Origin: Candidatus Parcubacteria bacterium
GTDB lineage: Bacteria; Patescibacteriota; Patescibacteriia; Patescibacteriales; UBA12075
Assembly: GCA_023132155.1 (NCBI GenBank)
Contig: JAGLYP010000002.1
Span: 6,598 to 70,597 of the forward strand
Length of the DNA stretch: 64,000 nucleotides
Direction: 5' to 3'
The notes beneath the pieces are model-generated. The model saw only the letters and a list, made by a program, of their open reading frames with translations, searched no databases and was not told where the DNA came from. The position numbers were made by a program, and so were the translations under genes. Each line of letters begins with the position of its first letter. Position 1 is the stretch's first letter. Positions 8,255-57,874 of this stretch are shown in pieces.

Positions 8255-9622
8255 ATGTCTAATAATATTAAAAAAATCAATAAAAACAGGGATATTTTAT
8301 TGAGGCGCGCGCTTTGGGTAATTGTGCCGTTTTTGCTTGCTATTTTAGCGCTGGATAAGGTTAGCTTAATAACAATTTTTGGAATATTAGCAGTTTATTT
8401 GATTTTTGTCTTTGCCAAAGATAAAATTTGGTATCTATTGGTATTGGCGGTGCCAAGCCTTGTTTTTGGAAAAATTTTATATATTCCAATTACCAATACC
8501 TGGGTATACGAAGCTCGTTTCGCGGAAGTCTTTTTGGGCATGGTTTTAATAGTTTTTATTTCGGATGTATTTTTAAATAATAAAATAATAAATTTAAAAT
8601 TTGATAAGATCAGTTTTGGGCTGCTTATTTTTTTAATCGCGTCGCTTGCTTCAATATATTCGGCGCTTGACTTTCGTTTGTTTGTTTTTGCTTTAAAAAC
8701 AATTGTTTTTAGTTTTTTAGCTTATTTTTTGGCTTTGAATTTGCTTGATAATAAAAAGAAAGTCTTTTATTTTTTATACAGCATGGCAATAACCGGAATG
8801 ATTCTTAGCGCGCAAATTTTTTGGAAATTTTATCAGATGGGCTTTTCAATTGATTTCTTTTTTAATCGTTCCGATATTTTAATTCCAATCGGGCCGATTG
8901 CCACGACCGCGGCAATTTTAACTTTTTTAGCGCCGATACTTTTGGCTTTTTATTTTCAGCTTAATGATTTGAATAAATGGAAGCCGTTTGTGTTTTTGGG
9001 ATTTTTTATGAGTTTTTTCGCGGTTTTTTTAACTTTAGGAAAAGGCGCGATTATCAGTTTGTTTTTCGGCTTGTTTGTGGTTTTTTGCATGCATAAGCAG
9101 AAAAGAATTGCTTATATTTTATTTTTTATGTGGTTCGCGGCCTTGCTGTATTTCGGTTTTCAGCCCTATTTTGCCGGATTGTTCGAGCGGTTTAAAACTA
9201 CCTTGGTTGATGTCAACACGGAGTTTAGAGTGAAAGAGTATAAGTTAAGCTTTGATTTAATTAAGAATCATCCATGGATGGGGGTTGGCGTCGGCCAGCA
9301 ATTGTATTATTATAAAAAGATTCTTAATCAAGAGCAAGGTAATTTTGTAAATAATTTTATTTTGCAAACCGTAATTGATCTAGGGCTAGCCGGCCTGTTT
9401 TTGATGTTATTTATAATTAAAAATATTATAAAAAAAATAAAAGATGTTTGGCGCGCGGGCGGGAAAGAATCGGTTTTAGTTATCGGTTTTATTGCCGCAT
9501 TTGCCGCCGCGTTTTTAAACGGTATGGTAGAAGTAACGATTTATGCCTTGCCTTACGCGATTGTTTTTTGGTTAACGCTTGGAGTTTTTGAAAATGCCGC
9601 GGAAAGGGAGGAAAAACCATGA
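8255..9622 (+). CDS. O-antigen ligase/polymerase-like (Wzy_C-type) polytopic membrane protein
   Basis: 455 aa with about 10-12 hydrophobic helices and a periplasmic loop carrying HPWMGVGVGQ, typical of the O-antigen ligase family. ATGA overlap with the next gene. Confidence 0.65.
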   Translation: MSNNIKKINKNRDILLRRALWVIVPFLLAILALDKVSLITIFGILAVYLIFVFAKDKIWYLLVLAVPSLVFGKILYIPITNTWVYEARFAEVFLGMVLIVFISDVFLNNKIINLKFDKISFGLLIFLIASLASIYSALDFRLFVFALKTIVFSFLAYFLALNLLDNKKKVFYFLYSMAITGMILSAQIFWKFYQMGFSIDFFFNRSDILIPIGPIATTAAILTFLAPILLAFYFQLNDLNKWKPFVFLGFFMSFFAVFLTLGKGAIISLFFGLFVVFCMHKQKRIAYILFFMWFAALLYFGFQPYFAGLFERFKTTLVDVNTEFRVKEYKLSFDLIKNHPWMGVGVGQQLYYYKKILNQEQGNFVNNFILQTVIDLGLAGLFLMLFIIKNIIKKIKDVWRAGGKESVLVIGFIAAFAAAFLNGMVEVTIYALPYAIVFWLTLGVFENAAEREEKP

Positions 9623-10461
9623 AAAAATTATCAGTTATAATAATTAATTACGGCACGGCAGAGATGACGGAAAAGGTTATCAAGAATTTTATTGTTAAAG
9701 AAAAGTCTTTAAGTTATGAAATAATTTTGATTGATAATAAGTCTGTTGAAAAAATTAATGAAAAGAAATTTTTGGATTTGGGCGCGGAATTAATTAAGAA
9801 TCAAGAGAACCTAGGCTTTGCCAAAGCTGTTAATCAAGGAATAAAACGCGCCCAAGGAGAGTATATTTTATTATTGAACTCCGATGTATTTATTAAGGAA
9901 AACGCTATTTCTAAAATGATTGAATATTTAGAAAGCGATTTGGACGCGGCAATAGCCGCCCCGAAAATATTTTTCCCGAATGGAAGAGTACAAATTAGCG
10001 CCGGAAGATTTCCAAATTTAACAAGGGAATTTTTGCGTTTGTTTAAGCTGTATAATCTAATTCCAAAATCCACTTTAATGAGTAAAAATGAAATGGAAAG
10101 CCATCGCGAGCGCGAAATTGATTGGGTAAGCGGCGCGTGCATGCTTTTTAAACGGGAGTTGACGGACAAAATCGGTTTTTTTGATGAAAAATATTTTTTA
10201 GGGGTTGAAGATATTGATTTTTGCTATCGCGCGCGAAAAAAAGGCTTTAAAAATATTTATTATCCAATGTCAACAGTAATCCATTATCACGGATTTTCGT
10301 CCGGCGGAACTGCGGCAATCAAACGCATTAAATATGATCGAGATGGCATGATATATTTTATGCGAAAGCATTTCCCGAAAAAAGTTTTTAGTTGGATATT
10401 AATCAAACTAATGCATGATTTGAAAATTTTTTTTCTTTTCTGTCATTCCTGTAAAAGTTAA
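9619..10461 (+). CDS. family 2 glycosyltransferase
   Basis: N-terminal SVIIINYG, then IDN.S and LLLNSD (DxD region), then EDIDFCYRA. The last codons run into a GTCATTCCTG word resembling the repeat-element terminus. Confidence 0.8.
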   Translation: MKKLSVIIINYGTAEMTEKVIKNFIVKEKSLSYEIILIDNKSVEKINEKKFLDLGAELIKNQENLGFAKAVNQGIKRAQGEYILLLNSDVFIKENAISKMIEYLESDLDAAIAAPKIFFPNGRVQISAGRFPNLTREFLRLFKLYNLIPKSTLMSKNEMESHREREIDWVSGACMLFKRELTDKIGFFDEKYFLGVEDIDFCYRARKKGFKNIYYPMSTVIHYHGFSSGGTAAIKRIKYDRDGMIYFMRKHFPKKVFSWILIKLMHDLKIFFLFCHSCKS

Positions 10462-10782: not shown

Positions 10783-11781
10783 ATGAAATTAAAAATAACA
10801 CAAAAAAAATATACCCCCAAAGACGCGACAATCGCGGTTACTTATTTTTGCAATTCGCGCTGTAGAATGTGCAATATTTGGCAGGATAAAAATCCGCGGA
10901 GTTTGAAAAAGGAAGATTTTTATAACTTAAGTCCTGATTTAAGATATATTAATTTATCAGGCGGAGAGCCTTTTCTGCATCCTGAATTGCCGGAAATTGT
11001 CCGTATTATAAATAAAGTCAGTCCAAAAGCGAAAATTATCATATCCAGCAATGGATTGGCAACCGGCTTGATTATAAAAACGATGAAAGAGATTAAAAAA
11101 ATTGATTCGCGTGTTGGTATTAGAATTTCAATTGACGGATTGCGAAAAACCCATGATCGTATGCGTGGGATTGATGGAATATATGAGGCTGCTATGAAGA
11201 CGCTTGCCGGTCTTAAGATAATCGGCATTAAAAATTTAGGATTAAGTTTTACGATTATGAATGAAAATGCTGATGAATTGAAAGATATATATAATTTGTC
11301 AAAAGATTTGCAAATTGAATTGGCTTTGGCCTTGGTGCAGAATTCTGAAATATATTTTACAAAAAATGACAACCAGTTAACTTATATTGATAAAGTTAAG
11401 AGCGGCCTGAATTATATTATTAAGCAAGAATTAAAAAGCGCGAACCCAAAGCGCTGGGGGCGAGCTTTTTATGATTACGGTTTGCTAAAATACGCGGAAA
11501 GCAAAGAACGCCTGCTAAAAAGCGGCGCCGCTTACGATTCTTTGTTTATTGATTCCTTGGGAAATGTTTATCCCAGTAATTTGATAAATTTGAAATTAGG
11601 CAGCATCAAAAAAGACAAGCTGGACAATATCTGGCGGTCTGGCAAAGCGCAAGCGGTTCGCGATAAAATAGAAGCGGAAAATATCACGGAAAGCTGGATA
11701 ATTTGTACAATCCGCGGCGAGATGAAAAAAAATATATTTAAGGTTTTGTTTTGGGTGTTAAAGAATAAGTTATGTGTGTAA
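10783..11781 (+). CDS. radical SAM protein in glycan locus
   Basis: CNSRCRMCNIW (CxxxCxxC) near the N-terminus, then GGEPFL. The track starts at TTG 10723; I prefer ATG 10783 because 10723 lies just after the repeat element. The start is uncertain. Confidence 0.7.
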   Translation: MKLKITQKKYTPKDATIAVTYFCNSRCRMCNIWQDKNPRSLKKEDFYNLSPDLRYINLSGGEPFLHPELPEIVRIINKVSPKAKIIISSNGLATGLIIKTMKEIKKIDSRVGIRISIDGLRKTHDRMRGIDGIYEAAMKTLAGLKIIGIKNLGLSFTIMNENADELKDIYNLSKDLQIELALALVQNSEIYFTKNDNQLTYIDKVKSGLNYIIKQELKSANPKRWGRAFYDYGLLKYAESKERLLKSGAAYDSLFIDSLGNVYPSNLINLKLGSIKKDKLDNIWRSGKAQAVRDKIEAENITESWIICTIRGEMKKNIFKVLFWVLKNKLCV

Positions 11782-11871
11782 TGCTAATAATGCGAATAAA
11801 TGCTAATTTGCTAATTGCGAATACTATTCATTAGCAATTCGCAAATTAGCATTTATTCGCGGAATTAGCAT
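11781..11871. repeat. imperfect 91-bp palindrome, family P2 (GCGAATAAATGCTAAT words)
   Basis: ATGCTAAT..GCGAATAAATGCTAATTTGC...GCAAATTAGCATTTATTCGC..ATTAGCAT fills the whole spacer between the radical SAM stop and the GT4 start. Confidence 0.6.
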
Positions 11872-13258: not shown

Positions 13259-13340
13259 CGGCGGGTGGATGAGCGGAGCTGATTTTTTTTGACAGATTTT
13301 TACCCTCATGCTAAATTTAAAATAGAAATTTATTAAAAAT

Positions 13341-13955
13341 ATGATGAATAAAAAAATAACAATTTTAGTTTTGGTTTTAGCCGTGATGGCGGTTGTTTCG
13401 GGATGTGGGAAAAAAATAGAAAAATTTGTTACTAATGACAATATTACCAAAGATGATAATAAGTTACAGAAGACTGAAAAAAAAGCAACTACGACAGGAG
13501 AAATTATAGAATATATTGAAGGCAGTGAAATAGATATATCTAATTGGGAAATTTACCATAATAAACTACATGGATTTCAAGTAAGATATCCATTAAAATA
13601 TTTAGATAATAAAGATTATGAGATTTGGGAGATTGATAAAAATGTAAAATTTGAAGGTAACGATTGGGGCGTTAACAAATATCAAGAAACTATAATTCAT
13701 ATACAGACGTATCCCGCAGAAAAGGAAAATGATGTTTTTCAACATTTTAAATTTAGTTTTTTAAACAAGAAAATTATTTTGACTAACAATATTATAGCAA
13801 AAAGGGTTAAAGGACTGGGATGTGAAACTTGGTATATTAGACATAAAAAAAATATTTATATTATTTCTAGTAGTTTTTGTTTTGATTCTAAGGGAGCAGA
13901 GCTTGAATATTCAGAATATAGAAATATTATGAATAGTATTAAATTTGATAAATAA
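13341..13955 (+). CDS. lipoprotein, function unknown
   Basis: Signal peptide with lipobox VVSGC at residues 18-22. Confidence 0.6.
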   Translation: MMNKKITILVLVLAVMAVVSGCGKKIEKFVTNDNITKDDNKLQKTEKKATTTGEIIEYIEGSEIDISNWEIYHNKLHGFQVRYPLKYLDNKDYEIWEIDKNVKFEGNDWGVNKYQETIIHIQTYPAEKENDVFQHFKFSFLNKKIILTNNIIAKRVKGLGCETWYIRHKKNIYIISSSFCFDSKGAELEYSEYRNIMNSIKFDK

Positions 13956-21918: not shown

Positions 21919-22284
21919 ATGACTCTCCATATAGACACAAGCAAAAATAATTTAATATATCTGGCCTTAAAAAATGGCGATGAATTAATTTTGGAAAAGA
22001 AAATTACCGTGCGATATAATCAAGCGGAAAAATTATTGCCCGGAATTGATGAGATTTTAAAATCGGCAAATAGTGATATAGCGAAGATTCAAGAGATTAT
22101 AGTTGTTAATTCAGGCGAGGGTTTTACTGCCTTAAGAATTGGCATAATTACGGCAAACGCGCTTGGTTTTGCTTTAAATATTCCGGTTTTTAGCAGTGAT
22201 AATAAGCAGATAAAAAGTAATTATGATTTTAGCGTTATTGAGCCAAAATATAAAAAAGAACCTAATATTACAACAAGGAACTAA
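21919..22284 (+). CDS. tsaB: TsaB-like protein (N-terminal domain only)
   Basis: 121 aa. IDTS at the N-terminus and SGEGFTALRIGIITANALGFALNIPV (cf. GPGSFTG[LV]RIG of TsaB). The last two codons and the stop (AGG AAC TAA) lie inside palindrome P1a. Confidence 0.55.
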   Translation: MTLHIDTSKNNLIYLALKNGDELILEKKITVRYNQAEKLLPGIDEILKSANSDIAKIQEIIVVNSGEGFTALRIGIITANALGFALNIPVFSSDNKQIKSNYDFSVIEPKYKKEPNITTRN

Positions 22285-22359
22285 GTACCTACGATTTCTT
22301 TTGTTAACTTGGGTTTTAAAACCCAAGTTAACAAAAGAAATCGTAGGTACTTAGTTCCT
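22276..22359. repeat. perfect 84-bp palindrome, family P1 (copy a)
   Basis: AGGAACTAAGTACCTACGATTTCTTTTGTTAACTTGGGTTTT | AAAACCCAAGTTAACAAAAGAAATCGTAGGTACTTAGTTCCT. Two 42-nt arms with no mismatch and no loop. Confidence 0.95.
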
Positions 22360-22530
22360 GATTAATCATTGACAAATATCAATAAATATTATAACTTATA
22401 TATGTGGTGAAAGCCCATTTTTTTATTTAATAAACTTAAAATTAACTTCCAATTACTTATTATTTTTCCTTGATAATTTAATTTTTTAAATTATTAAATA
22501 ATAAGAAAATGGATTTAAAGGAAAAAAATT

Positions 22531-24204: not shown

Positions 24205-25068
24205 ATGAAAATCGCTAAAGTAAAATTTATTGATTGGGACAAAGAATATAATTTTTCTTTTAATGGTTTGGAATTGAAAGAAGGCGACAAGGTGGTGGTT
24301 AAAACCGAATTAGGTTTGGAGCTGGGTGATGTTGTTGGTTTTAGCGATTTGGATGATAGTGAATATGTTTTGGAAAGTGAAGCGGGCGAGACCGATGAAA
24401 ATGGCGAGCAGACGGAAAAAAATATTATAAAACCGATATTAAGAAAGGCGGTATTGCGTGATTTAGAGAAAATGGTGTCTTTTGATGAAAAGAAAGAGGC
24501 TTTGGAAGTTTGCCGTAAAACCAAGGATCGGCATGATTTGCCAATGAAATTTATTGATGTTCATTATTCTTTTGACGGTTCTCGCGTTACTTTTGCTTTT
24601 ATTGCCGATGGCCGGATTGATTTTCGCGAGTTAGTAAAAGATTTAACAAGGCATTTTGGCAAAACCATTCGTTTGCAGCAAATCGGCATTCGTGATGAAG
24701 CGAAAATAATGGGCGATGTCGGCCATTGCGGGCAAAGACTTTGTTGCCGCGGGCATTTAAAAAATTTAGAATCAATAACATCGGAGATGGCGGATATCCA
24801 GGGTTGCGCCCATCGCGGTTCTGACAGAATCTCCGGAGTATGCGGGCGATTGATGTGCTGTCTGGCTTATGAACAGCGCGGGTATGAGGAATTGGTTAAG
24901 AATTTGCCGCCCATTGGAGCCAAGGTTAATGTTGACGGTAAGCGCGGAATTGTTGTCGGCCATAATCCCTTAAAACAAGCGGTTAAGGTTGAGTTTCAAA
25001 GCGATGGTGAAAATGGCGGCAGGGTTGTTGTTGAAGTTGATTTGAATCGGCATAAAAAACAGATATAA
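24205..25068 (+). CDS. PSP1 C-terminal domain protein (RicT/YaaT-like)
   Basis: ILRKA..RD, the IRLQQIG region, and the Cys cluster CGQRLCC...CGRLMCCLAYE. Confidence 0.7.
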   Translation: MKIAKVKFIDWDKEYNFSFNGLELKEGDKVVVKTELGLELGDVVGFSDLDDSEYVLESEAGETDENGEQTEKNIIKPILRKAVLRDLEKMVSFDEKKEALEVCRKTKDRHDLPMKFIDVHYSFDGSRVTFAFIADGRIDFRELVKDLTRHFGKTIRLQQIGIRDEAKIMGDVGHCGQRLCCRGHLKNLESITSEMADIQGCAHRGSDRISGVCGRLMCCLAYEQRGYEELVKNLPPIGAKVNVDGKRGIVVGHNPLKQAVKVEFQSDGENGGRVVVEVDLNRHKKQI

Positions 25069-25169
25069 TGCCAATCTGCGAATAAATGCTAATCTAGCGA
25101 ATTGCTAATATAATATATTCGTACATTAGCAATTAGCGGCATTCGCGTTTATTCGCAGATTGGCATTAT
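25065..25169. repeat. 105-bp palindrome, family P2 (copy b), shared by convergent genes
   Basis: Outer 22-bp arms are perfect (ATAATGCCAATCTGCGAATAAA / TTTATTCGCAGATTGGCATTAT); the inner part is imperfect. Shares the GCGAATAAATGCTAAT and GCGAATTGCTAAT words with 11781-11871. Confidence 0.8.
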
Positions 25170-27110
25170 ATTTTTTATAAATTTAAAAATATAAACCTCG
25201 CCATTGTCAATTTTTTGCCAAGAATCGGCTTCAAGTTTTGCTTCGGCAAGAATTTTATCAAAAGCCCACCAGTATTTATTTAAAACAAAATATCCGGTGT
25301 TAACCCCAACTAAATCCATGGCGGCTTCCATTGTTTTTTTATTTGGCTTTTTGTAAACCATATCTAAATAATACAGATAAAGACTGCCGCCGGTTGGAAT
25401 CGGGTAATAAAAAATTTCTTCTTCAGCGCTTTGATAATATTTTTTAAAGCCAAAACTGTAAAGGCTGGCAACGCTGGTTTGTTGGTTAGCTAAAACAACA
25501 AAATCTTCTTTTGTATTATATTCTATCCATTTAACCGCGTTTAAATCGCTTTTGCCAACTGAATAGCCGTGAGAATTAAAGTAATGGTCATAGCGCGGAT
25601 AAGAAAAATATAAAGATACGCATATTAGTAGACAGAAAAAGCCTAGAAGCGAGTATTTGATAACTTTATTTTGCGCGAGTATTTTTATTATTAATTGATA
25701 AAAAGCGATTACAATAAACGGTAGCAGAAAAAAGCAGGCCGAAGTTAAAATTCGCTTGCTGTAATTTGCTTGTTCATAGTTGATAAGAAAAGCAAAAGAA
25801 AGTTTTGTGCTTAAAAGGTAGGAAGAAAATAACGCTAAGGATGAAAAAAAATAGAGTGCTAATATTCGGCATTCTTTTTTGTGTTTCAGAGCGATAATTA
25901 TTCCGCTGATAACAAAAAATATTAAAATATATTTAATATTAAATATGAAAAAATATACTGTATTTAAAATGATATTTTCTTTGTCTGGGAGAGAAAATTT
26001 TAAGCAGCTAAAAGAAAAAGTTTCCTGGCTTGTTGAAATGTCTGCCGGTTTTTTTGTATTTTTTTCAAAAAAGAAAAAAGCTAAAGGAAGAGCCAATGCT
26101 AGACTTGAATAAATTATAAAATATCCAAATTTTTTAATTTTTAGCTTGTTATTATAAATTATGATTAAACAGCTGAAAAGCAGAGCGGGAATACCGGCAA
26201 GCGGATGGATAAAAAAAGCGGTCGCGGATAATAAAAAGATGTTTATATAATCAAGAGCGTATTTGCACTTAAGCGAGTAGGCCAGAGTTAAAATTAAAAA
26301 GACGTAAGCTAAATTTTGCGGAGTAGTAACAATTAAAAAAGAAAAAGGCAATATTAATAAAAAAAGAATTGATAGTTGAATAATTTTTTTGTTTTCCAGC
26401 CATTTTGTCAGAACTGAAAGCATAGCGGCCGGTAAAATTATCCCCCCAAAAAAAGGAACTAAAATTTTATCTAAATAAACGATTGGAATTAACGTAATTT
26501 TATTCAGCACCACCACTAAAGCGTATTGTCCTAAATAATAAAATGGCTTAGGATTGACTTCGCCGGTTTTACTGATTAACTCTTCGGTAGCTTGGTGGAT
26601 GAAGGGATCAAAACCATAACCGATTTTGTATATTATTAAAGCAATTGAAAAACTTAAGAAGTAATGAAAAATTATTAAAAGATTTGCCAAGGGCTTGTTT
26701 TTGATGATAATAAACATCAAACAAGCGGTAAGCATAAAGTATAGCGCGTAAAAAATATAGGGGATTGTCTGCCAAGGTGAAATAATAGCTTCTGCTGTTC
26801 TTGAGATAAACAATATATAAGCGGACGCTGTAAATAAAAGCAGATATATAATCGGGGCGAAAAACGCAAAAAAAGTTTTTTTCCGCTTTTCTGTTTTTAT
26901 AATGTTTGTTTTTGGTTTGATTATTATTTGCTTGTTGAATTTTTTTGTAAAGCGGAGTATAATTATAAATGATAAAAAGGCTAATATTAAAATAATAATT
27001 ACGCCGGTAATATTTAATTTATATAGGCGATAGATAATTGCTCCCCAAGAAACAAAAAGACTGAGGGCAATCAGAAGATATTTTAAGATTTTATCAAATT
27101 TAATTGGCAT
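25149..27110 (-). CDS. large polytopic membrane protein, function unknown (possibly GT-C-like)
   Basis: 653 aa with more than 12 hydrophobic helices and a soluble C-terminal domain. The last six codons (IMPICE) and the stop lie inside palindrome P2b. Confidence 0.45.
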   Translation of the reverse strand: MPIKFDKILKYLLIALSLFVSWGAIIYRLYKLNITGVIIILILAFLSFIIILRFTKKFNKQIIIKPKTNIIKTEKRKKTFFAFFAPIIYLLLFTASAYILFISRTAEAIISPWQTIPYIFYALYFMLTACLMFIIIKNKPLANLLIIFHYFLSFSIALIIYKIGYGFDPFIHQATEELISKTGEVNPKPFYYLGQYALVVVLNKITLIPIVYLDKILVPFFGGIILPAAMLSVLTKWLENKKIIQLSILFLLILPFSFLIVTTPQNLAYVFLILTLAYSLKCKYALDYINIFLLSATAFFIHPLAGIPALLFSCLIIIYNNKLKIKKFGYFIIYSSLALALPLAFFFFEKNTKKPADISTSQETFSFSCLKFSLPDKENIILNTVYFFIFNIKYILIFFVISGIIIALKHKKECRILALYFFSSLALFSSYLLSTKLSFAFLINYEQANYSKRILTSACFFLLPFIVIAFYQLIIKILAQNKVIKYSLLGFFCLLICVSLYFSYPRYDHYFNSHGYSVGKSDLNAVKWIEYNTKEDFVVLANQQTSVASLYSFGFKKYYQSAEEEIFYYPIPTGGSLYLYYLDMVYKKPNKKTMEAAMDLVGVNTGYFVLNKYWWAFDKILAEAKLEADSWQKIDNGEVYIFKFIKNIMPICE

Positions 27111-27800: not shown

Positions 27801-27840
27801 TAGGGAACAAAAATTTTTGTTCTCAAATATAAAAACAACC

Positions 27841-27880
27841 CCGCCCCTCGCGAGGGGCGGGGTTGTTTTTTTTAAGAATA
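27841..27880 (+). terminator. perfect 40-bp palindrome / terminator, family P3
   Basis: AAAAACAACCCCGCCCCTCG | CGAGGGGCGGGGTTGTTTTT followed by a T-run. Confidence 0.85.
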
Positions 27881-32745: not shown

Positions 32746-35232
32746 ATGGCAAACAACGATATATTTCTTAATTCATTGATTGTTTTTATTTTTTTATTTT
32801 TGTCCGCGTTGCTTGTTCTTTTTGCCGCAAAAATTATTATTAGAAAAGTAATTTCAAAAAATGAGCATTTTGACCATATTATTTATTTAATCCGCCTGCC
32901 AAAAGATAAGCCCGGCAATCAAGAGAGGGAGGATTCTGTCCAACAGCTAAGAGAAGAGATAGCCAAGGGCGAAACTATTTTTTCCAGTATTGGCGGTTTG
33001 CGCGCGCAAAGGGGTTTTTGGGCTTGGTTTAAAGGCAGAAGCGACCATTTTTCATTTGAGATTGCGGCAAGTAAAAAGAAAATCGTTTTTTACGCTGTTG
33101 CTCCGCGAAAATTAGGCCGCTATATAGAACAGCAGATTCATGCCCATTACCCCGAAGCCGTAATTGAGGAAGTGGATGATTATAATATTTTTACGGCAAA
33201 ATCCCACGTGGTTGCCGGATTTTTAAAAGCAAGTAGAAGTTTTATTTTCCCCTTAAAGACATACAATAAAATGGAGGCTGATCCAATGAATTCAATTATT
33301 AATGTTATGTCAAAATTGGAGGTTGACGAAGGATTATCCATCCAGTATTTAGTCAGAAGCGCCAAGCCGGCTTGGCACGCCGGCGCCGCTAAAATCGCGG
33401 CTTGCATCCATAAAGGTGAAACAATGAAAGAAGCTTTAAAGAGCTTTAATAAAAATCCTTTTTTTGTTTTTTTAAGCGAAGCTATAAAGGCAGCCAAAAC
33501 AGAAAGCCCGGAAGAAAAGCAAAAAAAAATAAGCCAACAGCCGCCGCGCTTGACCGCGATGGAAGAGGAGATGCTAAAGGGGATTGAAGAAAAAAATTCC
33601 AAGGCCGGTTTGGACGTAAATTTGCGCGTAATTGTCAGCGCCAAGAACGCGGGGCAGGCGCGATTGTATCTTGATAATCTTTCCAGCGCTTATAGCCAAT
33701 ATAATTATTATGAATACGGCAATAGTTTTGGCAATAAAATAAAGATTAAAAAACAGAAAAAATTGATTAGCGATTATATTTATCGCCGCTTTGATGATCG
33801 TATCGGATTTTTGCTTAACACCGAGGAATTGGCAAGCCTTTATCATTTGCCTTTAAAAACTTCGGAAACGCCGAATATTTTATGGCTAACAGCGCGGCAT
33901 GCGGCAGCGCCTGTAAATATCCCCGGAGAAGGATTGCTCTTGGGGCGGAATATTTATCGCGGAGAAGTGTCTGATGTCAGAGTTAAAAGAGCGGATCGCA
34001 GGCGGCATACATATGTCGTCGGTAAGTCCGGTACCGGTAAATCAAAGCTAATCGCCGGTATGGCAATTCAGGATATTTTAAACGGCGAAGGGATATGTTT
34101 GCTTGATCCTCACGGCGATTTGGTGGCTGATGTTTTAAATCGTATTCCGCCGGAAAGAGCCGAGGATGTAATTTTATTCGCGCCGGCCGACACTGAAAGG
34201 CCTTTGGCTTTTAATTTATTGGAATACGATCCTAAGTATCCGGAACAAAAAACTTTTGTAATTAATGAGATGATTAAGATTTTTGATAAATTGTACGATT
34301 TAAAGGCAACCGGCGGACCGATTTTTGAACAATACGTGCGCAATGCCATGCTTTTGATTATGAGCGATCCGGCATCGGGCTCAACTTTGATGGAAATTCC
34401 GAAAGTATTGGCTGACGCGGATTTCAGGAAAATGAAATTAAAAAAATGTTCCGACCCTACTGTTGTGGATTTTTGGAAAAAAGAGGCTGAAAAAGCCGGC
34501 GGCGACGCGGCCCTGGCCAATGTAGTGCCGTATGTTACTTCAAAATTGACGCAATTTATTTCCAATGATACGATGAGGCCGATTATCGGCCAGCAAAAAA
34601 GCTCTTTTAGCATTCGGGATGTAATGGATAAGCAAAAAATACTGTTAGTGGATTTGTCCAAGGGGCAAGTCGGGGAAATGAATTCATATTTGCTCGGTAT
34701 GATTTTGGTGGGAAAAATTTTAATAGCGGCATTATCGCGTACGGATATTAGCGAGGAAAAACGCAAGGATTTTTATTTGTATATTGATGAGTTTCAAAAT
34801 TTTACCACTGATTCAATCTGCTCAATTCTTTCAGAAGCCCGCAAATATAATTTAAATTTAATTATCGCGCATCAATATTTGGGGCAATTGGCTAAAAATC
34901 AGGATACGTCAATCAAGGATGCTGTTTTCGGCAATGTCGGCACGATGATGGTGTTTAAGATCGGCTCTGAAGACGCGGAATTTTTATCAAAAGAATTCAG
35001 CCCGGTGTTTAATCAGTTTGATTTGATAAATATTGAAAAATATACTACTTATGTAAAATTATTGATTGACAATACGGCAGGCCGCCCTTTTTCAATGGCA
35101 ACCCTGTGGCCTTTGCCTGGAATTGAGCGCGAAGGCATGGCTGGAAAAATCAAAACATTAAGCCGTTTAAAGTTCGGCCAAGATAGAAACATAATTGAAG
35201 CGGAAATCAGAAAAAGAACCGTTGGCGGGTAA
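32746..35232 (+). CDS. membrane-anchored VirD4/TraG/TraD-like (type IV coupling protein-like) P-loop ATPase
   Basis: N-terminal TM helix. Walker A is VVGKSGTGKS, followed by LLDPHGDL. Walker B is FYLYIDEFQNF. C-terminal region has IIAHQY. Confidence 0.65.
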   Translation: MANNDIFLNSLIVFIFLFLSALLVLFAAKIIIRKVISKNEHFDHIIYLIRLPKDKPGNQEREDSVQQLREEIAKGETIFSSIGGLRAQRGFWAWFKGRSDHFSFEIAASKKKIVFYAVAPRKLGRYIEQQIHAHYPEAVIEEVDDYNIFTAKSHVVAGFLKASRSFIFPLKTYNKMEADPMNSIINVMSKLEVDEGLSIQYLVRSAKPAWHAGAAKIAACIHKGETMKEALKSFNKNPFFVFLSEAIKAAKTESPEEKQKKISQQPPRLTAMEEEMLKGIEEKNSKAGLDVNLRVIVSAKNAGQARLYLDNLSSAYSQYNYYEYGNSFGNKIKIKKQKKLISDYIYRRFDDRIGFLLNTEELASLYHLPLKTSETPNILWLTARHAAAPVNIPGEGLLLGRNIYRGEVSDVRVKRADRRRHTYVVGKSGTGKSKLIAGMAIQDILNGEGICLLDPHGDLVADVLNRIPPERAEDVILFAPADTERPLAFNLLEYDPKYPEQKTFVINEMIKIFDKLYDLKATGGPIFEQYVRNAMLLIMSDPASGSTLMEIPKVLADADFRKMKLKKCSDPTVVDFWKKEAEKAGGDAALANVVPYVTSKLTQFISNDTMRPIIGQQKSSFSIRDVMDKQKILLVDLSKGQVGEMNSYLLGMILVGKILIAALSRTDISEEKRKDFYLYIDEFQNFTTDSICSILSEARKYNLNLIIAHQYLGQLAKNQDTSIKDAVFGNVGTMMVFKIGSEDAEFLSKEFSPVFNQFDLINIEKYTTYVKLLIDNTAGRPFSMATLWPLPGIEREGMAGKIKTLSRLKFGQDRNIIEAEIRKRTVGG

Positions 35233-35365: not shown

Positions 35366-36067
35366 ATGACTGATGCAAATATTTTATTAAATGATGATTT
35401 AGACGAAAATGAAAATACTGATTTTATTGATGATTTGGACTTAAACCATAATTTAGGCGCGGATAAAAATGAAAACGCGGAAAACGCGGAAAAAGACGAG
35501 ATAATAATAAGTAAATCAAAGGCGATTTTAATTAAAAAATTATTAGAAAATATTCAGGAAAACAGTGATAGAATTACAAAACTTTTAGCAGGTTTAATTA
35601 GCGAAGAAGATGAAAGCAGAATAAGCATTGGGCAGATGAGTGAATTTTTGAAAAGTGATGTTTCAGATAATAACGAAAGCCAGGATGAGGGCGGCAGAAT
35701 TATTGAGGGTGTGTTTGACGGAGAAAATATGATCGGTCCGGACGGAAAACAATACAGCGTTCCTGCCAATTACGCCAGTAAGTCCAAATTGATTGAAGGA
35801 GATATTTTAAAATTAACAATTACCCCGACAGGCACTTTTGTCTATAAGCAAATCGGTCCGATTGAAAGAATAAGGGTTATGGGAAATTTGGAGCAAGGAG
35901 AAAACGGCAGCTTTACCGTAGTGTCTGATGATAAAAGGTGGAATGTTTTAACCGCCAGCGTAACATATTATAAAGGGCAAGACGGTGATGAGATTATTGT
36001 GTTAGTGCCGAAAACCGGAGGCAGCAAATGGGCGGCGGTTGAAAATATTGTAAGAAAAAACGTTTAA
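35366..36067 (+). CDS. hypothetical protein, acidic N-terminus plus beta-rich C-terminal domain
   Basis: 233-aa ORF with a D/E/N-rich first 60 aa. No recognised motif. Confidence 0.45.
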   Translation: MTDANILLNDDLDENENTDFIDDLDLNHNLGADKNENAENAEKDEIIISKSKAILIKKLLENIQENSDRITKLLAGLISEEDESRISIGQMSEFLKSDVSDNNESQDEGGRIIEGVFDGENMIGPDGKQYSVPANYASKSKLIEGDILKLTITPTGTFVYKQIGPIERIRVMGNLEQGENGSFTVVSDDKRWNVLTASVTYYKGQDGDEIIVLVPKTGGSKWAAVENIVRKNV

Positions 36068-36078
36068 AATTATTTATC

Positions 36079-36146
36079 AAAAAACCTTTTTTTGCTGTTA
36101 GCCTTGGTCTTAAAACCCGCGCTAACAGCAAGAAAAGGTTTTTTGT
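36079..36146 (+). terminator. long hairpin terminator
   Basis: AAAAAACCTTTTTTTGCTGTTAGC ... GCTAACAGCAAGAAAAGGTTTTTT. Confidence 0.6.
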
Positions 36147-37954: not shown

Positions 37955-38028
37955 TCGGGGATCGTCTAATGGTAGGACATCAGGTTCTGGTCCTGGGTAT
38001 CGGGGTTCGAATCCCTGTCCCCGAGCCA
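37955..38028 (+). tRNA. tRNA-Gln (anticodon CTG), CCA encoded
   Basis: Hand-folded. Acceptor TCGGGGA/TCCCCGA. D arm GTCT-AATGGTA-GGAC. Anticodon stem TCAGG/CCTGG with loop TT-CTG-GT. T arm CGGGG-TTCGAAT-CCCTG. Discriminator G plus CCA. Confidence 0.9.
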
Positions 38029-38234
38029 CGAAAAATGGCTTCGCCATCTCGTGGCAGGCCGTATAAATAGCACATAAACCACTTACGTGAATTTCGTTAA
38101 TACTTTTAAAGAGGTATGGCGAAGTCCATTTTGAGTGAGCCGCGTGATGCGCTTGCGCATTTTACGCGGCAAGGAACGTGAATTACGCACAGGCTTGCCA
38201 TATAAAAAATACGTCTTAAAAGACGTGTTTTTTT
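38029..38234 (+). other. G+C-enriched, hairpin-dense 200-nt segment ending in a terminator; candidate small ncRNA or recombination-site relic
   Basis: Nested hairpins CCACGA..ATGGC ttc GCCAT..TCGTGG and GCCGCGT..ACGCGGC. Long-range pairing TGGCAGGCC(38052-38060)/GGCTTGCCA(38192-38200). Terminator ACGTCTT aaa AGACGT plus T7 (38211-38234). Confidence 0.3.
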
Positions 38235-38312
38235 GTGCTACAATAACAAATATAATTATTTTTAAAAAGCGGATCAGGCAGGAAATATTTAAATAAGCAG
38301 TTAAGAAATTAT

Positions 38313-38555
38313 TTAGGCCGCAATCTTCAATTTTGTTAATTTTGCGTTTAAAGCTAACTTTATATATTCAATCATCCGGCTAAATCCTGTCCGTCCGGCG
38401 CTTTCAGCAGTTTCGTCGTCCTCAAATTCTTTGACCACTTCAAAATCATTTGCTTTGGCATAATCGGCAAGCAATTTTCTTTGAGCGGGGATTGAGTATC
38501 CCTCTTGTTTTTGTTCTTTGGATGATACGCGGACGTAGATTATTGATTTTGGCAT
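38313..38555 (-). pseudogene. serine recombinase, N-terminal catalytic stub only (about 68 homologous aa)
   Basis: IIYVRVSSKEQKQEGYSIPAQ (catalytic Ser motif) and GRTGFSRMIEYI. Homology stops after about 68 aa and the ORF ends at 80 aa. No recombinase-like sequence downstream. Confidence 0.7.
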
Positions 38556-38559
38556 AAAT

Positions 38560-40419
38560 TTATAATTCCATGGTTGTCTGCTTATGCTTTTTTTCTAGTT
38601 TTTTATTAATTTTTTCTATCTTCTTTCTCTGTGTTTCAAGCATATTTTCCGTTCTTTTTGAAATTATTGTGTAATGAGATTCTGGTAATTCTTTTTTAAG
38701 AAATAAACCTTCAATATAGCGCATCCTTTCTTCAAGTTCTTGAATATTGTCTTTCGTTTCTTCATATTCTAAATCTAACGACTCTTCTTCTAGGGCGATA
38801 TCTAAAACATATGTAAATCCCCTGTATGCGGCTTTATGAATATCGGAATTACACACTTCTAATAACCTTGAAGGTACTTTTGGAATAATACCTCTGTGTA
38901 GGGCAACCCCAAAATCAAGCGAGCACAAAATTCCTGACCCTTTCCAGTTGGCTAAACTAGTTTTTCTGGATCTTGTTCTTTTTTTATCATGGATAATACC
39001 GACGGAAATTAAATTTGCTATTTCACCTGCGCTTCTAGCCGCAGTAGTAAAATATATTGTAATAGGTGTTTTTTTATCTGTATCAAGTCCGCTATTTTTA
39101 GTTTCAATACCCTTATTTCTCCGAGCAAATTTTTTTATTATTTTTTCCAATATTATGTTATCTTGATCGGTTAATGTGCTGTCGATTAATAAAGATGGTC
39201 CTTCTATAACTTGCGCTACTGCTGAAATTATATAGTTTATATCAATTTTTTTTGGAGTTTCAGTTTTTTTCTTTTCAAAATCTCTGATTAATTGTGTGTA
39301 GGCTTGTTTTAATATTTCAAGAAATCGTCTTGGCACACCTCCGGAGCAATAAGCAGCAATTGTTATTAAATTTTCATTTTCAAATACTTCGCTAATTGAT
39401 TTTTGAGTCTTTGTGTTTTTTGTCAATCTATTTTCAATTAATTGTTTAAAAAATGGCTCGTATTCATCGTTTAACTCATCTAATTCTAAATATTCCAATG
39501 TACAATCATGGCCAGGCTGAAAATTAAAATCATCCCCTCGAGTTGTTGCGGGATAATACGTGCTATGTGGAGGATAAACAGCAGCAATAAATACAATGTC
39601 AGGATTACATAAGTCCTTACCTCCACTTGCAGACCCCCTTATTTGTTTGCAGAGTCGAAAAATTTCGATTTGCATTTTTTTTGTTGATTCTGAACACTCA
39701 TCCAATAGTATGTAAATATAATTTAAGTTAAGTAATTTTTTTACAGTTTTTAGAAATGATATTAGGATATCAATTCCGTAGATATCAGATAGTTTTTGAG
39801 TCGTGTATTCTTTAATTTTTTCATCCTCAGAAACATTTTCCATTTTCGCTGTTGCAGATAGGGGCGGCATATCTATTCCAACGCCGCCTTCAGAATTAAA
39901 TTTTTTGCATACCCTTGTTATAATTTTATCTGGGTTGTCATACAAATCGCTTATGATATTATTTGCAAGTAACAATATTTTTTTTATATTTTTTTCAAGA
40001 GTAGCTTCTTCGCTTATTCCAAATAAATTTACTAATTTTTTAACCATTCCAGCTTCCGTTTCGTTTATAAATTTTTCTTTATTATCATTAATAAATTTCA
40101 TTACATATTTGATAACACTGATATATAAAAAAACTCTAAAATATTTAGGATCCTTTTTAGTTAATTGCGGCGCACTTGCGACAGTAACATATGCGGGGAT
40201 AATCCTAGTTTTGTTTAAATTATTTGATGCTTCTGTGATTATCATTTTTAATATGTGCGTTTTTCCCGTTCCTCTTATTCCTTCTAATATATAATTCCCG
40301 CCTTTTTGAGAAATCAATTTTTTAAAATCGATACATAAATCTACGTGGGTATCTGGAGAAAAACCAGAACTTTGTGCATCATGGTTAAATATTGTTGAAT
40401 CTATTTGTATTACACTCAT
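38560..40419 (-). CDS. ORC/Cdc6-like AAA+ ATPase with C-terminal coiled coil, function unknown
   Basis: Walker A GIRGTGKTH. Walker B YIYILLDECSES. Sensor-2-like GGVPRRFLEILKQA. K/E-rich coiled coil in the last 80 aa or so. Confidence 0.6.
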   Translation of the reverse strand: MSVIQIDSTIFNHDAQSSGFSPDTHVDLCIDFKKLISQKGGNYILEGIRGTGKTHILKMIITEASNNLNKTRIIPAYVTVASAPQLTKKDPKYFRVFLYISVIKYVMKFINDNKEKFINETEAGMVKKLVNLFGISEEATLEKNIKKILLLANNIISDLYDNPDKIITRVCKKFNSEGGVGIDMPPLSATAKMENVSEDEKIKEYTTQKLSDIYGIDILISFLKTVKKLLNLNYIYILLDECSESTKKMQIEIFRLCKQIRGSASGGKDLCNPDIVFIAAVYPPHSTYYPATTRGDDFNFQPGHDCTLEYLELDELNDEYEPFFKQLIENRLTKNTKTQKSISEVFENENLITIAAYCSGGVPRRFLEILKQAYTQLIRDFEKKKTETPKKIDINYIISAVAQVIEGPSLLIDSTLTDQDNIILEKIIKKFARRNKGIETKNSGLDTDKKTPITIYFTTAARSAGEIANLISVGIIHDKKRTRSRKTSLANWKGSGILCSLDFGVALHRGIIPKVPSRLLEVCNSDIHKAAYRGFTYVLDIALEEESLDLEYEETKDNIQELEERMRYIEGLFLKKELPESHYTIISKRTENMLETQRKKIEKINKKLEKKHKQTTMEL

Positions 40420-40546
40420 ATGTTTTGTTAAGTATAAAAATTATCTCCGTCTTTTTAAAATAAATTGTTAGCTAATTTTTATATTTATTAATTAATATCA
40501 ATTTTTTCCAAATTATTGCTTGCAATACATGATTTTAAATTCCTCA

Positions 40547-42106: not shown

Positions 42107-42113
42107 ATGAATA

Positions 42114-43019: not shown

Positions 43020-43020
43020 G

Positions 43021-45337: not shown

Positions 45338-45629
45338 ATGTACGTACTCCGCCCGTACATAATTTTTTATCCAGACGTAATAGCATATTAATAAGCAAAC
45401 CGGCTGTTTGCTTGCTTATCGGCAATTCCGAAATAATAGCTGATAAACGAGCGCCCTCTAAAAGAGAATTTTGATAGGCAAACCAAGTCCGAGAAGGCTC
45501 GATATGCGCTTTTACATATCACATTGCCGAAGTAATAGATGATTTTTCCAAATATGACCTTGGTAGTTTTCATTTTTTACATAAACAAGTTCCATATATA
45601 AACTTCTATGATTTTGAATTAGCAAAGAA

Positions 45630-45659
45630 AAAAGCCTTTTCGCGCGCGAAAAGGCTTTT
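45630..45659. terminator. perfect 30-bp palindrome, terminator of the 45689 gene
   Basis: AAAAGCCTTTTCGCG | CGCGAAAAGGCTTTT, flanked by A/T runs on both sides. Confidence 0.75.
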
Positions 45660-45688
45660 TGCTAATATTTTTTATAAATATCGCCTTT

Positions 45689-52133: not shown

Positions 52134-52187
52134 GAGACTAAGTCGCTACCCCGCCTCTCGCGAGAGGCGGGGTAGCGACTTAGTCTC
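52134..52187. repeat. perfect 54-bp palindrome, family P3, in the mraY-ftsW spacer
   Basis: GAGACTAAGTCGCTACCCCGCCTCTCG | CGAGAGGCGGGGTAGCGACTTAGTCTC. Confidence 0.95.
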
Positions 52188-55037: not shown

Positions 55038-56339
55038 ATGAAAAATTGCAGCTTAATTATAAAAGGAAAATATGTTTTAACAATGGATGACAAAATGTCT
55101 GTTTTTAATGATGGGGTTGTGGCGGTTGATGATGATGAAATAATAGCAATTGGCGAAAAGGAAATTTTAGAAAAGTACAAGAGTGAAAAAATTATTGATG
55201 CGGGAAACAGTATTATTATGCCGGGGCTGATTAATACGCATACGCACGCGGCCATGGCGTATTTTCGCGGGTTAGCTGATGATTTGCCTTTGCCGGTATG
55301 GTTGGAAAAGCATATTTGGCCGGCTGAGGCTAAATATGTTAATAAGAATTTTGTTAAAAAGGCTTCAGCGCTTGCTTGTTTGGAAATGATAAAATCGGGA
55401 GTTACTTGTTTTAATGATATGTATTTTTTTGAACAAGAAACCGCTTCGGTTGCAAGCCGGATCGGAATGCGCGCTTTAATCGGCGAAGTAATATTGGATT
55501 TTCATACGCCAAGCTGTAAAACTCCAAAAGAAGCGCTGAAAAAAACAGAAGAAATGATATTAAAATATAAAGACAGCGAATTAATTTCAGTGGCAGTCGC
55601 GCCTCATTCTATCTATACTTGTTCAGAGGAAAATTTAAGCAAATCGAAAGAATTAGCAGACAAATATTCAATTAATTTGCATATACATATAAGCGAAACT
55701 GAAAAAGAAAATAAAGATTGTTTGAGAGATAATGAAAAAAGTCCGGTTAAATATTTGGATGAGCTGGGAATTTTGAATAATAAAACAATTGCCGCGCACA
55801 GTATTTGGCTTGATGATGAAGATATTGAGATATATAAAAATAGGCAGGTAAAAATAAGCCATTGCCCGATTAGCAATATGAAATTAGCCTCCGGTATTAT
55901 GAATTTTAAAAAAATGCGTGAATCGGGTTTGGTAATCAGTTTGGGAACGGACGGCGCGGCAAGCAATAATACTTTGGATTTATTTTCTGAAATGCGCGCT
56001 TGCGCTTTATTGCATAAAGTAAACAATTTGAATCCGGAAATAGCCTCTGCAACTGAAATCGTAAAAGCCGCGACAATTAACGGCGCCAAGATCTTGGGAA
56101 TGGATGATAAAATCGGTTCGCTTGAAATTGGCAAAAAAGCTGATATAATAACTGTTAATTTGAATAAGCCTCATTTGACCCCGATTTATAATCCATGTTC
56201 GCATTTGGTTTACGCGGTTAATTTAGCGGATGTGGAGAATGTGATTGTTAACGGCAAGCTGATTATGCAAAACAGGGAAGTTTTGGGTTTGGATGAGGAT
56301 AGAATATTAGAAGAGGCATGTAAGTTCAAAAGGAACTAA
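55038..56339 (+). CDS. mtaD: amidohydrolase, 5-methylthioadenosine/S-adenosylhomocysteine deaminase-like
   Basis: MPGLINTHTHAAMAYFRGLADDLPLPVWLEKHIWPAE, HISET, and GTDGAASNN. The last two codons and the stop lie in palindrome P1b. Confidence 0.75.
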   Translation: MKNCSLIIKGKYVLTMDDKMSVFNDGVVAVDDDEIIAIGEKEILEKYKSEKIIDAGNSIIMPGLINTHTHAAMAYFRGLADDLPLPVWLEKHIWPAEAKYVNKNFVKKASALACLEMIKSGVTCFNDMYFFEQETASVASRIGMRALIGEVILDFHTPSCKTPKEALKKTEEMILKYKDSELISVAVAPHSIYTCSEENLSKSKELADKYSINLHIHISETEKENKDCLRDNEKSPVKYLDELGILNNKTIAAHSIWLDDEDIEIYKNRQVKISHCPISNMKLASGIMNFKKMRESGLVISLGTDGAASNNTLDLFSEMRACALLHKVNNLNPEIASATEIVKAATINGAKILGMDDKIGSLEIGKKADIITVNLNKPHLTPIYNPCSHLVYAVNLADVENVIVNGKLIMQNREVLGLDEDRILEEACKFKRN

Positions 56340-56414
56340 GTACCTACGATTTTTTTTGTTAACCTGGATTTTAAAATCCAGGTTAACAAAAAAAATCGTA
56401 GGTACTTAGTTCCT
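56331..56414. repeat. perfect 84-bp palindrome, family P1 (copy b)
   Basis: AGGAACTAAGTACCTACGATTTTTTTTGTTAACCTGGATTTT | AAAATCCAGGTTAACAAAAAAAATCGTAGGTACTTAGTTCCT. Fills the whole mtaD-murC spacer, ending 2 nt before the murC ATG. Confidence 0.95.
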
Positions 56415-56416
56415 TC

Positions 56417-57874
56417 ATGCAATATATTATGGATTTAGAAAATATTAAAAAAATATACATGATAGGCATTAAGGGCGTGGGCATGACTATGCTCGCTCAG
56501 TTTTTGGCTTCAAAAGGATATAATGTAAGTGGCTCCGACGTGGATGAGGTTTTTATGACTGATGAAGTTTTGAAGACGGCCGGAATAAAATTTTATAATG
56601 GCTTTAATAAGAATAATGTTCCATTAGACACTGATTTAGTAATATATTCAACCGCCCATGAAAAAAACAATAAAGAGCTTGAATTTGTAAAAAGCCGCAA
56701 TAAAAAAATAATGACTTACGCCGAAGCGCTTGGCGTAGTTTTTAAAGATTATTATGGCATAGCGGTTTGCGGATCGCACGGCAAGACAACCACGACTGCT
56801 TGGCTAGCTTATGTTTTAAAAAAGGCTAATCGCGAGCCGAACGCAATGATTGGCGCCAGAGTGGAGCAGCTTGACGGAGCAAGTATTATCGGCAGTTCCC
56901 AATATTTAATAATTGAAGCTGATGAATATCAGAATAAATTAAAATATTTGGAATCGCGCGCGGTTTTGTTGAATAATATTGATTATGACCATCCGGATTT
57001 TTTTCCTACTGAGGATGATTATAATCAAGTTTTTATTGAGTTTATTAAAAAGATTCCGAAAAAGGGCTGGGTGGTTGCCAATTTTGATGATCCAATAATT
57101 AGAAAAATCGCTCTGGTAAACACGCGAGCGAAAGTTATCAGCTATGCGATAAACGAGTCGGCTGATTATGTGGCTTATGATATTAAGCAATTAAATGACA
57201 AACAATATTTTAAAGTAAAAATCGGACCAAGCGTTTTTGAAGAAAATGATTTATTAGCGGATACGGAACTTGGGAATTTTTCAATTCAATTGATTGGCGA
57301 GCATAATATCTATAATGCTCTGGCGGTAATCGCGGCGTCAATTGAATTGGGGGTTGACTTGGTGGATATCAGGACTTATTTAGATGAATTCAAGGGAACG
57401 TCCAGGCGCATGGAAATGATGGGAAAATTTAACGGCGCTGTTATTCTTGACGACTATGCGCATCATCCGACAGAAATTAAAACCACTTTAAAAGGCGCGC
57501 GGCAAAAGTATGGCAATAAAAAAATCCGCGTTGTTTTTCATCCGCATACTTTTACTCGCACAAAAGCCTTGTTTGATAATTTTGCTAAAAGTTTTGACGA
57601 TGCCGATGAAGTGGTTGTTTTGGATATTTACGGGAGCGCTCGCGAGGAGCATGGCGGAGTGCATAGTAGGGATTTGGTTGAAAAAATAAAATCACAAATC
57701 CCCACTTCACTAAAGCTACGCGGGGCAAGCACAAATCAAAAATTAAAAATTCATCATATTCCAACATTAGACAAATGTGAAAAATATTTGCGCGGTACAA
57801 TTCAGCGTGATGAAGTTATTATTTTAATGGGCGCGGGGGATGTGTTTCGGATCGGGGAAAAATTGGTAAAATAA
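56417..57874 (+). CDS. murC: UDP-N-acetylmuramate--L-alanine ligase
   Basis: IGIKGVGMTMLA, GSHGKTTTT, DDYAHHP and GAGDV. Confidence 0.9.
   Translation: MQYIMDLENIKKIYMIGIKGVGMTMLAQFLASKGYNVSGSDVDEVFMTDEVLKTAGIKFYNGFNKNNVPLDTDLVIYSTAHEKNNKELEFVKSRNKKIMTYAEALGVVFKDYYGIAVCGSHGKTTTTAWLAYVLKKANREPNAMIGARVEQLDGASIIGSSQYLIIEADEYQNKLKYLESRAVLLNNIDYDHPDFFPTEDDYNQVFIEFIKKIPKKGWVVANFDDPIIRKIALVNTRAKVISYAINESADYVAYDIKQLNDKQYFKVKIGPSVFEENDLLADTELGNFSIQLIGEHNIYNALAVIAASIELGVDLVDIRTYLDEFKGTSRRMEMMGKFNGAVILDDYAHHPTEIKTTLKGARQKYGNKKIRVVFHPHTFTRTKALFDNFAKSFDDADEVVVLDIYGSAREEHGGVHSRDLVEKIKSQIPTSLKLRGASTNQKLKIHHIPTLDKCEKYLRGTIQRDEVIILMGAGDVFRIGEKLVK

Follow-up and report, generated by a model that had tools for sequence, protein, structure and literature searches.

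Two perfect palindromes in gene spacers of a 35%-GC Candidatus Parcubacteria genome are probably copies of a small, non-coding, mobile palindromic repeat, which we call P1, of the kind represented in other bacteria by MITEs and REPs. Like similar repeats in other bacteria, these two palindromes and a third, P2, are most likely small selfish insertions, and they are best read as a new family that resembles MITEs and REPs in its features. Small palindromic repeats have hardly been studied in Patescibacteria, and a full-text literature search returned no paper joining Patescibacteria with MITE or REP terms; P1 is consistent with selfish DNA of a familiar kind, so far undescribed in this group. 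If confirmed genome-wide, the family would show that genomes streamlined to below a megabase are still home to selfish hairpin DNA and exchange it, that gene ends and spacers within essential operons (the dcw cluster and rpsB-tsf) are reshaped by it, and that it breaks metagenome assemblies, with short contigs stopping within the palindrome. Throughout, the window denotes the whole stretch of 64 kb that was analysed, in which we found two P1 copies and one P2.

The first copy, P1a (22276..22359, no strand assigned), lies in the spacer between a tsaB-like ORF and rpsB and is an 84-bp palindrome made of two 42-nt arms with a spacer of 0 nt and no mismatches. The second, P1b, in the spacer between an mtaD-like gene and murC, is perfect at 56331-56414 and gains one further pair, giving 86 bp (56330..56415, no strand assigned). 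The original prediction of two loop-less, mismatch-free palindromes was thus confirmed, with the second copy one pair longer than described. The two loci are 34 kb apart, and the copies are identical at 78 of 84 positions (93%; 7% divergence), which supports their placement in one repeat family. A comparison of the arms also bore out the claim that the copies have their first 22 nt (AGGAACTAAGTACCTACGATTT) and GTTAAC in common and that their differences are matched in both arms. Each arm differs at three positions (C/T at arm position 23, and T/C plus G/A in ACTTGGG versus ACCTGGA), all of them transitions and all mirrored in the partner arm (3/3 compensated). These strictly mirrored differences make the pair a natural test case for hairpin-templated mutation.

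Such symmetry is far from what base composition would yield. The loop-less palindromes observed in the window have arms of 43, 42, 27, 20 and 16 nt, and none with arms of at least 12 nt was found in 100 shuffles of the window; similarly, the 20-mer AGGAACTAAGTACCTACGAT has four matches in the window, two per P1 copy, and none in 100 shuffles. Folded as RNA, P1a and P1b reach -66.4 and -64.9 kcal/mol (z about -17 and -19). The stem is AT-rich, and a stop codon is present in all three frames, in frame 1 at nt 7-9. P1a is flanked by ACA on the left and GAT on the right, and P1b by AAA and TCA. No family of Rfam 15 matched P1 at the gathering threshold, nor at the E-value threshold, the only hits being sub-threshold miRNA-precursor hairpin models.

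It could be argued that P1 arose from collapsed or fold-back reads. Several short k-mer contigs do stop within P1a, which is the behaviour expected at a true palindrome, and palindromes at contig ends do exist: a 90-bp perfect palindrome unrelated to P1 forms the very end of a metagenome contig (L021, 8050-8139), and represents a fold-back artefact of assembly or else a hairpin end. Against an artefact, the full P1a is internal to contigs of MAG GCA_030631305.1 and of two ENA assemblies, from different samples and with the correct genes on both sides. Furthermore, its 84 bp are shorter than a read, its flanks align cleanly with those of relatives, and P1a and P1b differ from one another at compensated positions. 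The P1b-bearing gene was likewise found on four contigs of 0.2-1 Mb. An origin in assembly, one of the ways in which the original prediction might have failed, is therefore very unlikely, and we give it next to no weight.

We then turned to the orthologous junctions of relatives whose proteins are 80-93% identical to those of the window. In three of these (L023, L024 and L025; TsaB 83% identical, same gene order), the tsaB/rpsB junction contains no palindrome, and ..AATATTACA is directly followed by GTTCCTAAAAATAATAATTGA. The relatives read ..AATATTACA GTTCCT AAAAATAATAA TTGACA.., and the window reads ..AATATTACA ACA AGGAAC(72 nt)GTTCCT GATTAATCA TTGACA.., so that the right-most hexamer of P1a, GTTCCT, corresponds to native Val-Pro codons of the tsaB tail in the relatives. 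Removing 81 nt restores ..NIT VPD and a stop, and about 78 of the 84 bp of P1a are without counterpart at the relative's locus. No target-site duplication is visible in this comparison with the empty site, only a tandem extra ACA and the native GTTCCT. These alignments support an insertion of P1a into the gene tail, with the direction of the event (gain here as opposed to loss in the relatives) suggested by the relatives' coding tails. Beyond P1a, the rpsB 5' region (22369-22530) consists of a TTGACA box and a leader of about 130 nt; it is about 90% identical in a relative whose tsaB tail differs, has no Rfam match, and is a possible regulatory RNA or conserved S2 leader. In L023, the place immediately upstream of tsaB, taken in the window by a glycosyltransferase, is occupied by an ORF for a 168-aa RVT_1 reverse-transcriptase fragment (9461-9967), and two copies of a 20-bp palindrome (GAACGCGCCGCGGCGCGTTC) stand 485 bp apart (13327-13346 and 13812-13831).

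The other two junctions are similarly variable. Between mtaD and murC, two relatives (L028 and L029; MtaD 84% identical) carry a 25-31-nt quasi-palindrome (GTAGGAACA G GGCA G TGCC A TGTTCCTAC), in which TAG is the mtaD stop and the outer AGGAAC/GTTCCT matches the ends of P1. In a further relative (L031, 82%), the hairpin is 49 nt long with a perfect stem of 23 bp (AGAGGCCGAACCTCTACGATTTT); it has CTACGATTTT in common with P1, and mtaD extends into it by 13 codons. No hairpin is found at this junction in L030 and L032. At the mtaD/murC spacer, then, three lineages each have a hairpin of their own, and a fourth lineage has no hairpin. Both L028 and L030 have AGGAA(C) where mtaD ends, and at both P1 sites AGGAAC/GTTCCT is native on one side. 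Between mraY and ftsW, the hairpin is absent from the 6-nt spacer of one relative (L036; MraY 91% identical), and three others (L033-L035, 93%) have a different insert of about 100 nt in place of P2; this insert (L033 9050-9129, and also in L034 and L035) is bounded by an imperfect inverted repeat, ATTCCCGA..TCGGGAAT. Each of the three window elements is accordingly missing from at least one close relative, with sites that are empty or different at 3/3 junctions, and the three junctions turn over quickly.

The tsaB-like ORF (21919..22284, plus strand, 121 aa) has its last two codons and stop (AGG AAC TAA, 22276-22284) within P1a, and the ORF for an mtaD-like amidohydrolase (55038..56339, plus strand, 433 aa) has its last codons and stop (56331-56339) within P1b; as had been proposed, both products end in ..RN and a stop, encoded by nt 1-9 of the palindrome. 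It had further been suggested that the element replaced or truncated native 3' ends, and here only one part of the claim stood: P1a appears to have inserted into the tsaB tail and supplied its stop, but neither gene has been shortened. The TsaB-like protein matches only the N-terminal half of the TsaB model, and its length had been attributed to the element; however, 100 homologues from Parcubacteria/Patescibacteria are mostly 116-130 aa, and all 100 have a conserved ..EPNIT end followed by 0-9 variable residues. The short TsaB is thus a lineage trait, and about six residues have been exchanged in the tail (VPKNNN in the closest relative versus TRN in the window). We also considered whether TRN might be an old, conserved product of an element, and rejected this; a distant homologue (P0016) ends in TRNT, encoded by ACA CGT AAC ACA TAA without a palindrome, so the resemblance is coincidental. 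The window MtaD-like protein ends in ..EACKFKRN, its closest homologues in ..EACKFQ or ..EACKFRKK, and its alignment reaches to 4-8 positions from the ends of the family models (NCBIfam). Two MtaD orthologues (P0103 and P0108) are also 433 aa long, with TAA at the same codon position and no palindrome, contrary to the idea that MtaD is truncated; orthologues ending at the same residue without a palindrome had been named in the original prediction as an outcome that would refute it. For annotation, the short TsaB and the MtaD C-terminus can be taken as native and undamaged. The start of murC (56440..57874, plus strand) is homologous to that of relatives (ATG GAT TTA GAA..) and lies 25 nt past P1b, which leaves no space for a promoter.

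P1 is composite, with an outer module that encloses a separate inner palindromic core. In P1a, the left arm of the outer module (AGGAACTAAGTACCTACGA; 22276..22294, mirrored at 22341-22359) contains ACTAAGT and CTAC (GTAG in the other arm), and the 46-nt inner core (22295..22340) is made up of a T-run, GTTAAC, TTGGGTTTT/AAAACCCAA, GTTAAC and an A-run. The core recurs (19/19 nt, with one compensated change) within an independent 66-bp perfect palindrome of a close relative (L033:3670-3735), where it is combined with another outer module; since the core also exists alone, one hairpin element appears to be nested in another. The outer module (ACTAAGT..CTACGATTT) is common to P2 and to elements of a related Parcubacterium. 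P2 (52134..52187, no strand assigned) is a 54-bp perfect palindrome in the mraY/ftsW spacer that begins 8 nt past the mraY stop and has an outer module (GAGACTAAGTCGCTAC) around a GC-rich core, the latter resembling the GC core of a terminator at 27831-27870. A search of the window with the pattern ACTAAGTNNCTAC..GTAGNNACTTAGT matched P1a, P1b and 52134-52187. When public genomes and metagenomes were scanned with the outer-motif pattern, essentially one further organism was found (L016, L018, L019, L005 and L020). Other scan matches (L006, L014, L015, L017, L021 and L022) look unrelated, of low complexity or like contig-end artefacts, and a hairpin-pattern scan of viral contigs gave no match. 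We discarded a DNA-uptake sequence as an explanation, unpaired single copies of ACTAAGTNNCTAC being no more frequent than expected by chance.

The related Parcubacterium has at least six elements. Four consist of a perfect 24-25-bp stem, AAAGAGACTAAGTCACTACGATTT(T), with an asymmetric loop of 35-38 nt, and are oriented 2:2 with respect to the flanking genes; a 56-bp perfect palindrome and a 24-bp-stem variant were also found. One of the loop-bearing elements (L005) likewise supplies a TAA stop to the upstream ORF. In the ksgA/rsmA gene of a metagenome contig (L020 637-1476; Ga0164318), two perfect-stem elements (875-930 and 1254-1305) keep the frame open, and the protein has 9 and 8 residues more than B. 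subtilis KsgA exactly at these two places; the first element encodes RLSPYD, where the B. subtilis equivalent is LSPYE. The element-bearing contigs are syntenic with L023 (nusG 91%, rplK 87% and thyA 87% identity), which identifies the host as a related Parcubacterium despite MAG labels of 'Gammaproteobacteria' and 'Helarchaeota'. In this connection, 7.6 kb of a contig of the Asgard MAG 'Helarchaeota Hel_GB_B' (L002, SUPR01000108.1) match a Parcubacteria-like contig at 100% identity, and CAZDHZ01 contigs of a MAG labelled Gammaproteobacteria (L001 and L003-L005) show synteny with Parcubacteria; both sets are likely to have been misbinned.

Across 12 related elements, the 351 stem bp (318+33) contain no mismatch and no G-T pair. 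Decayed relatives do exist, namely a hairpin in the spacer between the ORF at 35366-36067 and dnaX (36078..36145, no strand assigned; 85% complementary, with A6/T6 flanks), which by eye resembles the P1 inner core, and another at L023:12905-12940, and these show that not every element is kept symmetrical. Gene spacers also contain imperfect hairpins of a second family, unrelated to the first (11781-11871 and 25058-25176; 84-88% complementary, 42-55-nt arms) and built from GCGAATAAATGCTAAT-like units.

Several explanations other than mobility have to be weighed. The position of P1 directly 3' of a gene would suit an ordinary bidirectional Rho-independent terminator, and the perfect palindromes of the window at 27831-27870 (40 bp) and 45629-45660 (32 bp), with their A-tract/GC stem/T-tract form, are just such terminators. 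P1 departs from this form in its AT-rich stem, in an internal T8..A8 of the wrong polarity, and in what follows the stem (GATTAATC after P1a, TCATGCAA after P1b), where there is no T/U run on the transcribed strand and no T-run on either. A terminator scan called 27831-27870 on both strands and P2 on the antisense strand only, and did not call P1. The missing T-tract and the position of P1b 25 nt before murC, with no promoter space between, argue that P1 is no classical terminator. The earlier view that simple terminator selection explains P1 poorly is thereby supported, and a terminator has in our estimation only a slim chance of being correct. A more general role in RNA, in which the hairpins are selected cis-acting elements (RNase III sites, stabilisers of mRNA 3' ends or intercistronic insulators), with the stem under selection and the similarity of copies due to recruitment of a common protein-binding stem, is a possibility that we regard as doubtful. 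In its favour, each of the three window elements separates co-directional genes that are probably co-transcribed, RNA folding makes the stems very stable, the differences between P1a and P1b are all transitions and so compatible with G-U intermediates, and a strong hairpin is found at mtaD/murC in three lineages despite differing sequences. Selection on an RNA stem should, however, have left some G-U pairs behind, and the stems contain none; in transcribed REPs, G-T pairs are common (PMC3733652), as opposed to zero in about 350 stem bp here. In addition, close relatives are without a hairpin at tsaB/rpsB and mraY/ftsW, as are L030 and L032 after mtaD, and the loop-bearing relatives of P1 occur in both orientations, with two elements inside coding sequence. 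On sequence alone, a protelomerase or hairpin-telomere site, an integron attC and a CRISPR were rejected given the housekeeping-gene context and the absence of the associated genes from the window.

Each palindrome might instead have been born in place, through a replication template-switch (fold-back) that copied neighbouring native sequence in reverse complement, with no mobility and with the similarity of the copies due to conversion between hairpins. Perfect hairpins can arise by template switching in one step (PMC10710096, PMC7202029), the outermost 6 bp are native on one side at both sites, and the native murC leader of L028 (GTTCCTACGATATTATTT) resembles a P1 arm (GTACCTACGATTTTTTTT). 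This origin is nevertheless unlikely, as about 78/84 bp have no counterpart in the relative's tsaB locus, 84 bp that are 93% identical stand at two loci 34 kb apart, and the outer module recurs at unrelated loci in another organism. A further conception, to which we assign a low probability, is that the elements are transposase-independent mobile palindromes that make themselves symmetrical. A single-stranded hairpin or half-element would invade at the 6-bp AGGAAC match during replication and the second arm would be copied, so that copies would be born perfect, changes would always be mirrored, and nesting or 'inside-out' forms would be possible; the arms of P1 do resemble an A8-stem-T8 terminator palindrome whose two halves have been joined back to back. 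If true, this would amount to a new way for DNA to move, one that may be favoured in Patescibacteria. Members of this group are thought to depend on DNA uptake and to have reduced repair.

For small mobile repeats, our preferred reading, close parallels are available. MITEs such as Correia/NEMIS of Neisseria, ERIC/IRU and the pneumococcal SPRITE, BOX and RUP (PMC10969869) are, like P1, short and non-coding with inverted-repeat arms. They too lie at gene ends and in spacers, are co-transcribed with their neighbours, vary in presence among relatives and insert into one another, and SPRITE is terminator-like; nested and terminator-like MITEs (SPRITE, BOX and RUP), Correia hairpins cut by RNase III and in-frame RPEs have all been described (PMC10969869). 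P1 shares the terminal inverted repeats and non-coding character of this class (84-86 bp, two complementary arms, stops in all frames) and its presence or absence at orthologous sites (tsaB/rpsB, mraY/ftsW and mtaD/murC), and shows no target-site duplication at P1a or P1b. P1 also differs from these MITEs in being a perfect palindrome throughout, with no distinct internal region and no mismatches, in having no known cognate IS or transposase, and in the very few copies found so far.

P1 is also reminiscent of GTAG REPs and REPINs, which are mobilised by RAYT tyrosine transposases (PMC3733652). All outer modules contain GTAG/CTAC beside a weak 15-nt quasi-palindrome (AGGaACTaAGTaCCT in the P1 arm), and P1 is arranged like a REP 'TT dimer', an inverted pair with the GTAGs inside, around a variable and sometimes structured spacer. 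Like most REPs, P1-type elements usually follow a gene and separate ORFs that run in one direction, and REPs are in some cases located inside genes. REPs, however, are 20-40-bp stem-loops whose GTAG tag, at one end, stays unpaired; their stems are short (6-13 bp), GC-rich and frequently include G-T pairs, and they reach tens to hundreds of copies per genome. In P1 the GTAG is paired within a perfect, AT-rich stem of 42 bp, the copy number looks low at three elements (P1 and P2) in 64 kb, and no RAYT (Y1 transposase) was found within the 64-kb window. Rickettsia palindromic elements, compared here by description, are another case in which palindromic repeats are tolerated in genes or at their ends, where they add or replace residues; the ksgA gene of the related organism has two elements within an open frame. 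Rickettsia elements are about 100-150 bp, imperfect and Rickettsia-specific, whereas P1 replaces a few C-terminal residues and the stop. Lastly, quasi-palindrome template-switch mutagenesis (PMC7202029; de novo hairpins, PMC10710096) resembles P1 in that arm-to-arm copying at the DNA level keeps repeats perfect; as a process of mutation it defines no family of elements, and on its own it leaves identical unlinked copies unexplained.

Taken as a mobile repeat, the family would be defined by an outer arm module, AGGA-ACTAAGT-AC-CTACGA plus a T-run, common to P2 and the elements of the related Parcubacterium, which in P1 encloses a palindromic core, GTTAAC..TTTTAAAA..GTTAAC, that also exists independently. 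Copies would land in short spacers and in the dispensable 3' tails of co-directional housekeeping genes. Since every frame of P1 meets a stop, a gene that is hit would end inside the element, and 'stop-codon donation' would therefore be a by-product and no function in itself. The native AGGAAC/GTTCCT on one side of both P1 sites suggests insertion guided by a short match between element end and target, or else a preferred target. Insertion of IS200/IS605 type 3' of a fixed AGGAAC target is compatible with the left flanks; counting against it, the right flank is an inverted copy and no Y1/TnpB gene is present among the window ORFs. More broadly, several results count against this reading: no transposase, RAYT, TnpA or TnpB was identified among the roughly 50 ORFs of the window (Pfam/NCBIfam), the tsaB empty site shows no target-site duplication, the known copies number two P1 and one P2 in 64 kb, and the scans of public sequences detected the outer motif in a single further organism. 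The hairpins at mtaD/murC in three lineages could moreover reflect a selected function at that junction instead of repeated insertion.

As murC is without a promoter of its own, transcription probably runs through P1b, and the resulting mRNA would carry a double-stranded hairpin of 40 bp, a possible substrate of RNase III. The symmetry of the arms would have its origin or its upkeep in the DNA itself, either through intramolecular template switching at replicating hairpins, an established route by which quasi-palindromes become perfect (PMC7202029; PMC10710096), or through the use of one arm as template for the other when the element inserts. Active homogenisation or fold-back generation, as originally put forward, is a plausible source of this symmetry: the roughly 350 mismatch-free stem bp count in its favour, and the decayed relatives count against an all-pervasive process.

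Elsewhere in the window, an 828-aa protein (32746-35232) has VirD4/TrwB-type coupling-protein domains, of the type IV secretion/conjugation kind described for Patescibacteria. A minus-strand block beside tRNA-Gln (block 37955-44823; tRNA 37955-38028) looks like an integrated defence or mobile island, and encodes an N-terminal resolvase fragment (38313-38555), an ORC/Cdc6-like ATPase (38560-40419), an AlwI-family restriction endonuclease (40547-42106), a D12 adenine methyltransferase (42114-43019) and a fusion of RadC with a D12 methyltransferase (43021-44823).
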